From contig CAVQJN010000001.1 of the NCBI GenBank assembly GCA_963712855.1, forward strand, positions 358,612-422,611: 64,000 bases of DNA, written 5' to 3'. Of this stretch, positions 38,201 to 38,830 are shown one piece after another. The DNA is from Thermoanaerobaculia bacterium (GTDB lineage: Bacteria > Acidobacteriota > Thermoanaerobaculia > Multivoradales > JAGPDF01). The notes below the pieces were generated by a model. It did not search any database. It was not told where the DNA came from and worked only from the letters and a program-made list of their open reading frames with translations. The position numbers and the translations under genes were made by a program. Every line of letters starts with the position of its first letter. Position 1 is the first letter of the stretch.

Positions 38201-38830
38201 AGCCTCTCTGACCGAGGGGTTGGGAAGCGGCTACATCTTCTGCTCGAATGGTTCTCCGAAGCCCCGACGAAGAAGATGTAGAGGCTTACCGGACCCACGG
38301 AATGCCCAGCACGACCGACGCCACCCCCACCAATACGTGAGGCGAAGACCGGGTAAGGAGCGTGCGCCGGTGCCTCTCTGCCCGACGGGCTGGGAAGCGG
38401 CTACATCTTCTGCTCGAATGGTTCTCCGAAGCCCCAACGAAGAAGATGTAGAGGCTTACCGGACCCACGGAATGCCCAGTACGACCGACGCCACCCCCAC
38501 CAATACGTGAGGCGAAGACCGGGTAAGGAGCGTGCGCCGGTGCCTCTCTGCCCGAGGGGCTGGGAAGCGGCTACATCATCTGCTCGAATGGATCTCCGAA
38601 GCCCCGACGAAGAAGATGTAGAGGCTTACCGGACCCATGGACCGCCCAGCACGACCGACGCCACCCCCACCAATACGTGAGGCGAAGACCGGGTAAGGAG
38701 CGTGCGCCGGTGCCTCTCTGCCCGAGGGGCCGGGAAGCGGCTACATCTTCTGCTCGAATGGATCTCCAAAGCCCCGACGAAGAAGATGTAGAGGCTTACC
38801 GGACCCACGGAATGCCCAGCACGCCGCCAA
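38201..38830. repeat. Tandem repeat array A: 170-bp unit x ~3.8 (copies at 38201, 38371, 38541, 38711), non-coding, each unit with an 11-bp-stem hairpin (ctacatcttct...agaagatgtag)
   Basis: Units are near-identical (e.g. tgcctctctgcccgaNgggctgggaagcggctacatcttctgctcgaatgg...ggcttaccggacccacggaatgcccagcacgaccgacgccacccccaccaatacgtgaggcgaagaccgggtaaggagcgtgcgccgg). The period is not a multiple of 3 and the ORF track shows frame-hopping peptides. Confidence 0.85.

Follow-up and report, generated by a model that had tools for sequence, protein, structure and literature searches.

What is the element that lies repeated, head to tail, in two intergenic gaps of a genome from the Thermoanaerobaculia, and at which level, that of RNA, DNA or protein, might it act? 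The question is raised by a stretch of 64,000 nucleotides (nt) of contig CAVQJN010000001.1 (assembly GCA_963712855.1, positions 358,612 to 422,611 of the forward strand), referred to here as the window, in which a preliminary description made from the letters alone had singled out one gap with about 3.8 nearly identical 170-bp units. That description had taken the units to be non-coding, had seen in each of them an 11-bp stem, a second short hairpin and a Shine-Dalgarno-like (SD-like) box, had alluded to a second array, and had proposed as candidates a tandem small RNA (sRNA) array, a cis-regulatory module or a MITE-like element. The answer developed below is that of a repeat family with non-coding units and a conserved fold, for whose role we offer a tentative reading, weighed against its rivals as the evidence on each of them appears.

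Two arrays of one repeat family

The family occupies two arrays on the plus strand, termed A and B, each of which is preceded by a short leader:

38167..38201, plus strand: leader of array A (GCGCAAATTCACTCCCAGCGGCG...), related to the leader of array B (local alignment, alignment A3)
38202..38823, plus strand: array A (Tandem Repeats Finder, repeat search, core starts, alignment A1, model R1)
43132..43165, plus strand: leader of array B, beginning 4 nt past the stop codon (43126–43128) of a gene for a 224-aa protein
43157..43662, plus strand: array B (Tandem Repeats Finder, repeat search, alignment A1, model R1)

For array A, Tandem Repeats Finder gives a score of 1153 at a period of 170, with 3.7 copies that match at 95% and with 0% indels, which bears out the count and spacing first described, and a repeat search recovered a 291-nt stretch three times, with its copies offset by 170 bp. 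Array B, the one previously only alluded to, has a period of 125, 4.0 copies and 95% matches. The two arrays lie 4.3 kb apart, both in intergenic sequence, and hold four units each. The cores of array A start at 38202, 38372, 38542 and 38712, measure about 112–115 nt each and are split by three linkers of 52–55 nt that are themselves repeated, and those of array B start at 43166, 43291, 43416 and 43541, with linkers of about 10–13 nt. A common core of about 112–115 nt, running from GCCTCTCTG to CACG(ACC), is present in all eight units (alignment A1), every one of which lies on the plus strand, head to tail and in the same direction as the upstream genes. Eight occurrences of one 20-mer, shared by the two arrays, were counted in the window at up to three mismatches, against no occurrence in 100 shuffles, and model R1 scores the array A cores at 142–147 bits, which are self-matches by construction.

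Compared with array B, the linker of array A carries an extra insertion of about 45 nt, which holds the SD-like box GGTAAGGAG at 38352, 38522 and 38692, one per linker and in array A only; of the earlier claim about this box, the presence in array A thus stands, in three copies, but its place is the linker, outside the conserved module. The 125-nt unit of array B is the minimal complete module. The array A linker resembles array A's own 3' flank (GCGAAGACCGGG versus GCCAAGACCGGG) as well as its 5' flank, and this origin from local flank sequence points to tandem duplication in place rather than to transposition. The leaders of the two arrays, about 35 nt long, are related to each other, with an equal local alignment score reached in 14 of 2000 shuffles.

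The repeat family is real. That it is a mis-assembled or artificially expanded repeat is an idea to which we attach next to no probability, even though the source is apparently a long metagenomic contig of 1.67 Mb and a neighbouring gene, pepF, has many frame changes: substitutions are all that sets the units apart, without any indel, each array is coherent in itself and distinct from the other, and an independent Logan short-read contig (L001, ERR11571143) is 100% identical through unit B1 and breaks near the end of the B1 core, where a break would fit a real repeat. No sign of an assembly artefact was seen; pepF and the 131-aa protein encoded upstream of array A, looked up for independent contigs across that array, are not on record. 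The arrays probably disrupt short-read assembly, as at the break of this contig in array B.

Two familiar kinds of repeat can be set aside at this level of description. CRISPR arrays combine repeats of 23–50 nt with unique spacers, and here units of 125–170 nt abut, the linkers are repeated rather than unique, and no Cas domain occurs in the scanned genes, so that the initial rejection of CRISPR holds. The MITE-like candidate fares less well than its original proposal suggested, as does an insertion sequence (IS) in general: the unit begins and ends with sequences (GCCTCTCTG... and ...CAGCACG) that do not form inverted repeats, there are no target duplications, all copies are direct, and there is no transposase in the window.

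Coding potential and fold of the unit

The units are non-coding, in agreement with the first reading of array A. Neither 170 nor 125 is divisible by 3, and the GC content by codon phase is flat, at 0.62–0.65, across both arrays. A candidate frame can nevertheless be drawn in array A, in which AAGGAG is followed after 9 nt by GTG in units A2–A4; in A2 and A3 it runs for 46 codons to a TGA stop in the linker, in A4 it has 58 codons and extends into the 3' flank, and unit A1 has no GTG. The notion that array A encodes tandem small proteins from these frames of 46, 46 and 58 codons draws on the SD-like box, start and stop found in three units, and on the 10 of 19 A/B differences in frame that fall at codon position 3. 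We consider it highly improbable, given that the GC content at third codon positions is 0.60 in the frame and 0.90–0.93 in neighbouring genes, that the ratio of nonsynonymous to synonymous substitution rates between A and B is near 0.7 and looks nearly neutral (a rough hand estimate from translations), that A1 lacks the GTG, and that array B offers the frame neither a start nor a stop nor an SD-like box. A search of 1.84 billion representative proteins with the 46-aa peptide returned no real homologue, the sole match being a repetitive, apparently eukaryotic sequence for which no aligned stretch was reported and which we treated as spurious. An exact look-up of the candidate open reading frame (ORF) products returned none in the protein collection, and a protein search with the translation of an array B ORF, meant to reveal further copies hidden under mis-called ORFs, returned nothing. 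In array B all three plus-strand frames are free of stop codons between 43166 and 43662, which accounts for the spurious ORFs 43189–44772, 43212–44135 and 43337–43807 that run antisense into the GGDEF gene beyond; such arrays yield spurious long ORFs, and we would advise annotators to mask them.

The structure of the unit was derived from single-unit folding and from RNAalifold, with the third helix taken from RNAalifold on six complete units. Three helices result, P1, a P2 rod and a weaker P3, placed as follows in unit A1:

38202..38220, plus strand: P1 (GCCUCUC, loop UGNCC, GAGGGGY; 7 bp including one U-G)
38221..38291, plus strand: P2 rod, recurring in every unit (RNAalifold, pair counts, simulation)
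38298..38371, plus strand: tail and linker (RNAalifold on six complete units)

P1 opens every unit, with a U-A pair in B1 where the others have U-G and with one C-C mismatch in A2; the second short hairpin of the earlier account, GCCTCTC-TGCCC-GAGGGGC, was found in all eight units. P2 is an imperfect rod of some 25–30 bp, modelled as about 23 pairs, in which G-A mismatches are conserved and a bulge of 2 nt occurs, and the 11-bp stem already described, formed by CTACATCTTCT at 38231–38241 and AGAAGATGTAG at 38271–38281, 29 nt apart, proved to be correctly placed and to be the middle of this longer rod. P3, which the tail CGGAAUGC can form with GCGCCG at the end of the linker, is the weakest helix; the P3 loop of array A carries the 45-nt insertion, including GGTAAGGAG at 38352–38360, so that AAGGAG falls in a predicted hairpin loop of the array A linker, and the tail variants of unit A3 (C to U and U to C) preserve P3 pairs. 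In an alternative version the 3' arm of P1 extends P2; both versions give 98.5% paired cells and are not distinguishable here. That figure drops to 39–52% when the 3' partners are slid by 1–3 columns, and three pairs are changed on both sides.

The fold is conserved, and the plus strand is the favoured one. Between the consensus sequences of A and B there are 18 differences over about 114 core positions, 15 of which fall in the P2 segment; the two arrays agree fully in P1 and in the 20-nt tail, and P2 differs by about 26%. Within P2 this divergence comprises two compensatory pairs (AU/UA and UA/CG), three wobble-neutral changes and one broken pair. When 18 random substitutions were placed on the A consensus, with the observed transition fraction kept, the probability of at least two compensatory pairs was 0.03, that of at most one broken pair 0.004, and the joint probability 0.0005; the covariance check against array B that the preliminary description had proposed therefore comes out in favour of the hairpin. 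Among the stem variants within arrays, about seven keep or restore a pair and three break one (hand reading of alignment A1), and one pair runs U-A, U-G and C-G across units. As to strand, the plus strand shows 12–16 G-U cells, each of them an A-C mismatch if the minus strand were read instead, against one position in the opposite sense, an excess that favours plus-strand RNA or plus-strand single-stranded DNA.

These counts bear directly on the possibility that the arrays are a neutral minisatellite, in which a hairpin that stalls replication expands by slippage or unequal crossing-over, so that the repeat would be functionless and its copy number variable between strains. Within-array identity is about 93–100% and the units at the array edges are more divergent, a combination typical of concerted evolution; the linker is built of flank sequence; the repeat is absent from every relative examined, the syntenic locus included; and MIRU loci behave in this way (PMC3635867). 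What such a minisatellite would leave unaccounted for is that A and B have diverged in a way that keeps the structure intact, with the joint probability just given, and that most stem variants within the arrays keep their pairs, and we regard it as a possible explanation, though on the unlikely side.

Distribution, surroundings and known systems

The family is previously undescribed, and it is known from two arrays in one uncultured genome and absent from the relatives examined. Homologues of neighbouring proteins whose hosts carry a name put this genome in the Acidobacteriota, probably the Thermoanaerobaculia. The nearest relatives in the protein collection have 66–70% identity for the 224-aa protein and 88–89% for the aldehyde dehydrogenase encoded to the right of array B, and homologues of these two proteins were used to fetch about 160 kb of relatives' loci (L049–L060), over which model R1 found nothing above about 11 bits. 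One relative (L052/L053) retains the block pepF, sulfatase, 225-aa protein and aldehyde dehydrogenase, and at this syntenic position it has neither the repeat nor a tandem array; similarity between the unit and the 3' flank of the L052 orthologue was not significant. The search of Rfam and relatives suggested at the outset thus returned no known family: Rfam 15 gave zero matches at gathering thresholds over the whole window, and at E<=10 mostly chance matches to eukaryotic microRNA (miRNA) models with a few other low scorers, all far below gathering scores. No transfer RNA or transfer-messenger RNA was found either. Pattern scans of 185,579 species genomes (P1 plus a 3' motif) and of JGI metagenomes (a degenerate 19-mer) gave only single chance matches, below 18 bits with R1; such scans demand exact matches, and diverged relatives would be missed. 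There was no match in viral contigs (two scans), in plasmids and phages (blastn) or in 5,426 E. coli genomes (blastn, distant mode). We know of no repeat or non-coding RNA (ncRNA) family described for the Thermoanaerobaculia, and a literature search found none.

In the window the genes around the arrays read, from the left, an NB-ARC regulator, a 285-aa Aldedh-like gene (minus strand), a sensor-domain gene (minus strand) and a gene for a 131-aa secreted protein (plus strand); then a hairpin at 38066–38140, array A, a hairpin at 38836–38904, pepF, a sulfatase gene, the gene for the 224-aa secreted protein and array B; and finally a minus-strand terminator-like hairpin at 43668–43654, a PAS-GGDEF gene (minus strand) and an aldehyde dehydrogenase gene (minus strand). 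Among the window genes scanned with Pfam there is no transposase, integrase, recombinase, reverse transcriptase or Cas gene, and they are ordinary chromosomal genes; nor did those scanned include a RAYT-like gene, csrA or any RNA-binding protein gene. The hairpins that follow the arrays are:

38836..38904, plus strand: hairpin in the gap between array A and pepF, with a stem of about 20 bp (GGGGACAGCUACCAAUUUUC...GAAAAUUGGAAGCUGUCCCC), an AT-rich middle and a fold z-score of -2.6
43654..43668, minus strand: hairpin resembling a terminator, with a T run, on the downstream side of the convergent PAS-GGDEF gene

The first of these has no U tract, drew chance matches to eukaryotic miRNA models in Rfam, and may be a terminator without a U tail. 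In the second, the T run (GTGTTTTG) is made by the substitutions that set the tail of unit B4 apart from the other units. Upstream of array A, just past the 131-aa gene, there is also a GC-rich hairpin of very high stability, about 30 bp long, at 38066–38140, which may likewise be a terminator without a U tail. Array B starts 37 nt past the stop codon of the 224-aa gene, with no stable hairpin between the two.

Two further observations concern the neighbouring genes themselves. The plus-strand gene pepF (38980–40830) aligns end to end, at 57% identity, with an intact 617-aa orthologue in L052, and between about 39.94 and 40.55 kb its best frame switches about seven times in a windowed scan (0>1>0>2>0>2>0), with a similar count from reading the three-frame translations by eye, and with stops at 39943 and elsewhere; this is a pseudogene in decay or else a stretch that was mis-polished locally in a long-read assembly, and the genes beside it are intact. 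A third tandem repeat, unrelated to the two arrays, lies at 16192–16824 within the plus-strand ORF 15451–17487, with a period of 126 bp (42 aa) and about five copies of 64–87% identity; it is coding, and forms IVEPPVELDHPPIETLTAP-type repeats in a 678-aa proline-rich protein.

Comparison of window positions 35821–38979 and 43129–44756 with L052 positions 5832–5891 and 10679–11585 shows that on either side of the shared block the window has genes that are additional or different. The extras of the window are the Aldedh-like, sensor and 131-aa genes on the left and the GGDEF gene on the right, and in L052/L053 two small genes replace array B and the GGDEF gene. One of the two is a 27%-identical homologue of the 131-aa protein, which in the relative therefore stands on the opposite side of the block, and both arrays lie exactly at the synteny breakpoints. 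This arrangement is what brings a DNA-level role into consideration, with the unit acting as a hairpin or cruciform, or with its conserved blocks of 19–20 bp serving as sites for a nucleoid protein or a recombinase: the direct arrays bracket the block of pepF, sulfatase and 224-aa genes precisely at the edges of its synteny with L052 and L053, beyond which the flanks differ, and the leaders of A and B are related. We nonetheless judge such a role improbable, as the G-T pairs, confined to one strand, are easier to reconcile with RNA than with duplex DNA, the 64 kb yielded no recombinase, integrase or transposase, and no attC-like R''/R' box, dif-like site or IHF-like site was noticed when the unit sequence was read by eye, with no scan run.

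Several known systems resemble the arrays in one respect or another. The units of MIRU measure 40–100 bp and are, to our knowledge, not defined by a conserved fold. MIRU form one repeat family at several intergenic loci, in short head-to-tail arrays of about one to five or more units, and are thought to be transcribed with flanking genes (PMC3635867). Arrays A and B share with them a single unit family, the head-to-tail order and the intergenic position, at two loci with four units each, but differ in having units of 125–170 bp, three hairpins and structure-preserving divergence, in lacking sequence similarity to MIRU, and in being known from two loci. The nearest known kind of element is the interspersed bacterial minisatellite, of which MIRU are an example.

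REP/BIME and ERIC elements are extragenic and form RNA hairpins, often 3' of genes or between the genes of an operon, and Newbury and colleagues are said to have found in 1987 that REP hairpins stabilise upstream mRNA. REP elements are 20–40 nt long, often alternate in orientation and are linked to RAYT transposases, and ERIC elements, of about 127 nt, occur as dispersed single copies; we know of no direct head-to-tail arrays formed by either. The modules of A and B are likewise extragenic and hairpin-forming, and their size is near that of ERIC. For REP/BIME, however, neither unit size nor orientation fits (judged within the 64-kb window), as had been recognised from the start, and ERIC/IRU is rejected on the lack of any match in the E. 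coli genomes mentioned above.

ToxI RNAs, a subject associated with Fineran in 2009 and Blower in 2011, reportedly consist of units of about 34–45 nt in a single transcript that is cut into units, with an endoribonuclease toxin encoded downstream. The succession of a structured-unit array, a hairpin and a gene is similar here; a type III toxin-antitoxin system of the ToxIN kind is rejected on the unit length of 125–170 nt and on the identity of the downstream genes, a Peptidase_M3 gene (pepF) and the convergent PAS-GGDEF gene. In the NsiR1, LhrC and Qrr clusters each unit has its own promoter and terminator. Arrays A and B resemble these clusters in setting several near-identical structured units side by side, but no promoter or terminator was found for single units, and the linkers of array B are too short to hold them. 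In neither array region was a sigma-70-like promoter or a plus-strand terminator-like site found, although the scan rules do not cover the promoters of this phylum; with this result and a B linker of about 10–13 nt, the candidate of a tandem array of separate sRNA genes becomes unlikely. 

The last comparison is with Solibacter-1, an acidobacterial multi-copy element of about 118 nt with a three-stem-junction structure, which its authors suspected to be a repetitive element (Weinberg et al. 2010, PMC2864571). The pyrimidine-rich/G-rich first hairpin is common to both, and the 11-mer GGCUUACCGGA is shared with the array A units; the copies of Solibacter-1, in contrast, are dispersed where those of A and B are in tandem, and the 11-mer is not kept in array B. 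Solibacter-1 is not in Rfam; a covariance model (R2) was made from 12 published sequences and their consensus structure. It matches neither array, whether its filters are left at their defaults or switched off, and Solibacter-1 is rejected; the direct alignment is not significant, with 59–68 of 1000 shuffles scoring as well and the reverse complement equal. Elsewhere in the window, R2 has one match at 33771–33860 (plus strand; 22.7 bits, rough E 5e-4), in the low-GC (0.53) 5' end of an NB-ARC/AAA_16 ORF, which is probably due to chance.

Possible roles of the module

The explanation towards which we lean, tentatively and at somewhat less than an even chance, is that of a lineage-specific structured RNA module that was amplified in place and is transcribed together with the upstream genes, in a role like that of REP or MIRU. 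The module of about 125 nt, with P1, the long P2 rod and P3, would be functional on its plus strand. It would once have been single at each of two nearby loci, where tandem duplication in place would have brought it to four copies each, with a 170-bp segment that included flanking sequence being duplicated in array A and the bare 125-bp module in array B. Transcription would pass from the upstream plus-strand gene into each array and yield a single chain of hairpins; the failure to find a promoter or terminator for single units makes transcription as one chain most likely, and since no stable hairpin separates the 224-aa gene from B1, transcription of that gene should run into array B, for which we regard such a continuation as nearly certain. 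Transcription would then end at the hairpin after each array, and we propose that the module acts as RNA, in the manner suggested for REP/BIME, ERIC or MIRU, so that the block of hairpins in the 3' untranslated region or intergenic transcript may protect, punctuate or end the upstream message and insulate the neighbouring gene. With convergent genes on its two sides, array B cannot serve as a 5' leader, and the earlier candidate of a cis-regulatory module for the downstream gene is at odds with this array.

Several points weigh against this explanation. The hairpin at 38066–38140 means that array A may need read-through or a promoter of its own. The structural comparison is one of only two diverged lineages, A and B, of a single genome, whose sequences also served to derive the structure; by energy alone the minus strand folds at least as stably; and the fold z-scores of single units are modest, at -0.5 to -2.7. 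That the arrays agree fully in P1 and in the 20-nt tail would not follow from simple protection of a 3' end alone, yet this agreement is itself not significant (P = 0.18 in a conserved-block test).

A single structured transcript, perhaps processed later, is possible, and it leads to the idea that each array is the precursor of a multi-copy trans-acting RNA, with cuts made by an enzyme such as RNase III in the P2 rod, of roughly 28 bp, or RNase E in the linkers, and that the unit-length products would serve as base-pairing sRNAs or as a protein sponge. The conserved fold and the P1 and tail sequences shared without change by the two arrays would suit such an RNA, four copies at two loci would fit dosage selection, and the GGA of the tail and of the array A linker loop would suit a CsrA-type protein, with AAGGAG in the predicted loop. 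The conserved blocks, on the other hand, are not longer than chance by the test just cited, and GGA per unit looks close to the expectation from composition by a hand estimate, a hand count giving 4–5 against about 2–3 expected. Only the AAGGAG of the A linker is clearly in a predicted loop. Little of the unit is single-stranded, pairing with translation-start regions in the window was no better than for shuffled seeds, and no RNA-binding protein gene lies nearby among the scanned genes. On balance we think such a precursor unlikely. More unlikely still, in our estimate, is the specific form in which a new structured ncRNA class of the Thermoanaerobaculia lineage would be made as a four-unit concatemer, be cut by a host RNase working on the long P2 rod or by a self-cleaving activity of its own, and act as a regulator in trans or as a sponge.

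As it stands, the wider importance of the element is limited by its confinement to one uncultured genome. If the conserved fold does reflect function, the locus would be a clean case of two arrays in one genome that supply their own covariation evidence. Should the concatemer act in trans, the two arrays would be dosage-amplified genes and not passive repeats; and a module that works as RNA would give the Thermoanaerobaculia, within the Acidobacteriota, a non-coding element that is structured and amplified for dosage.

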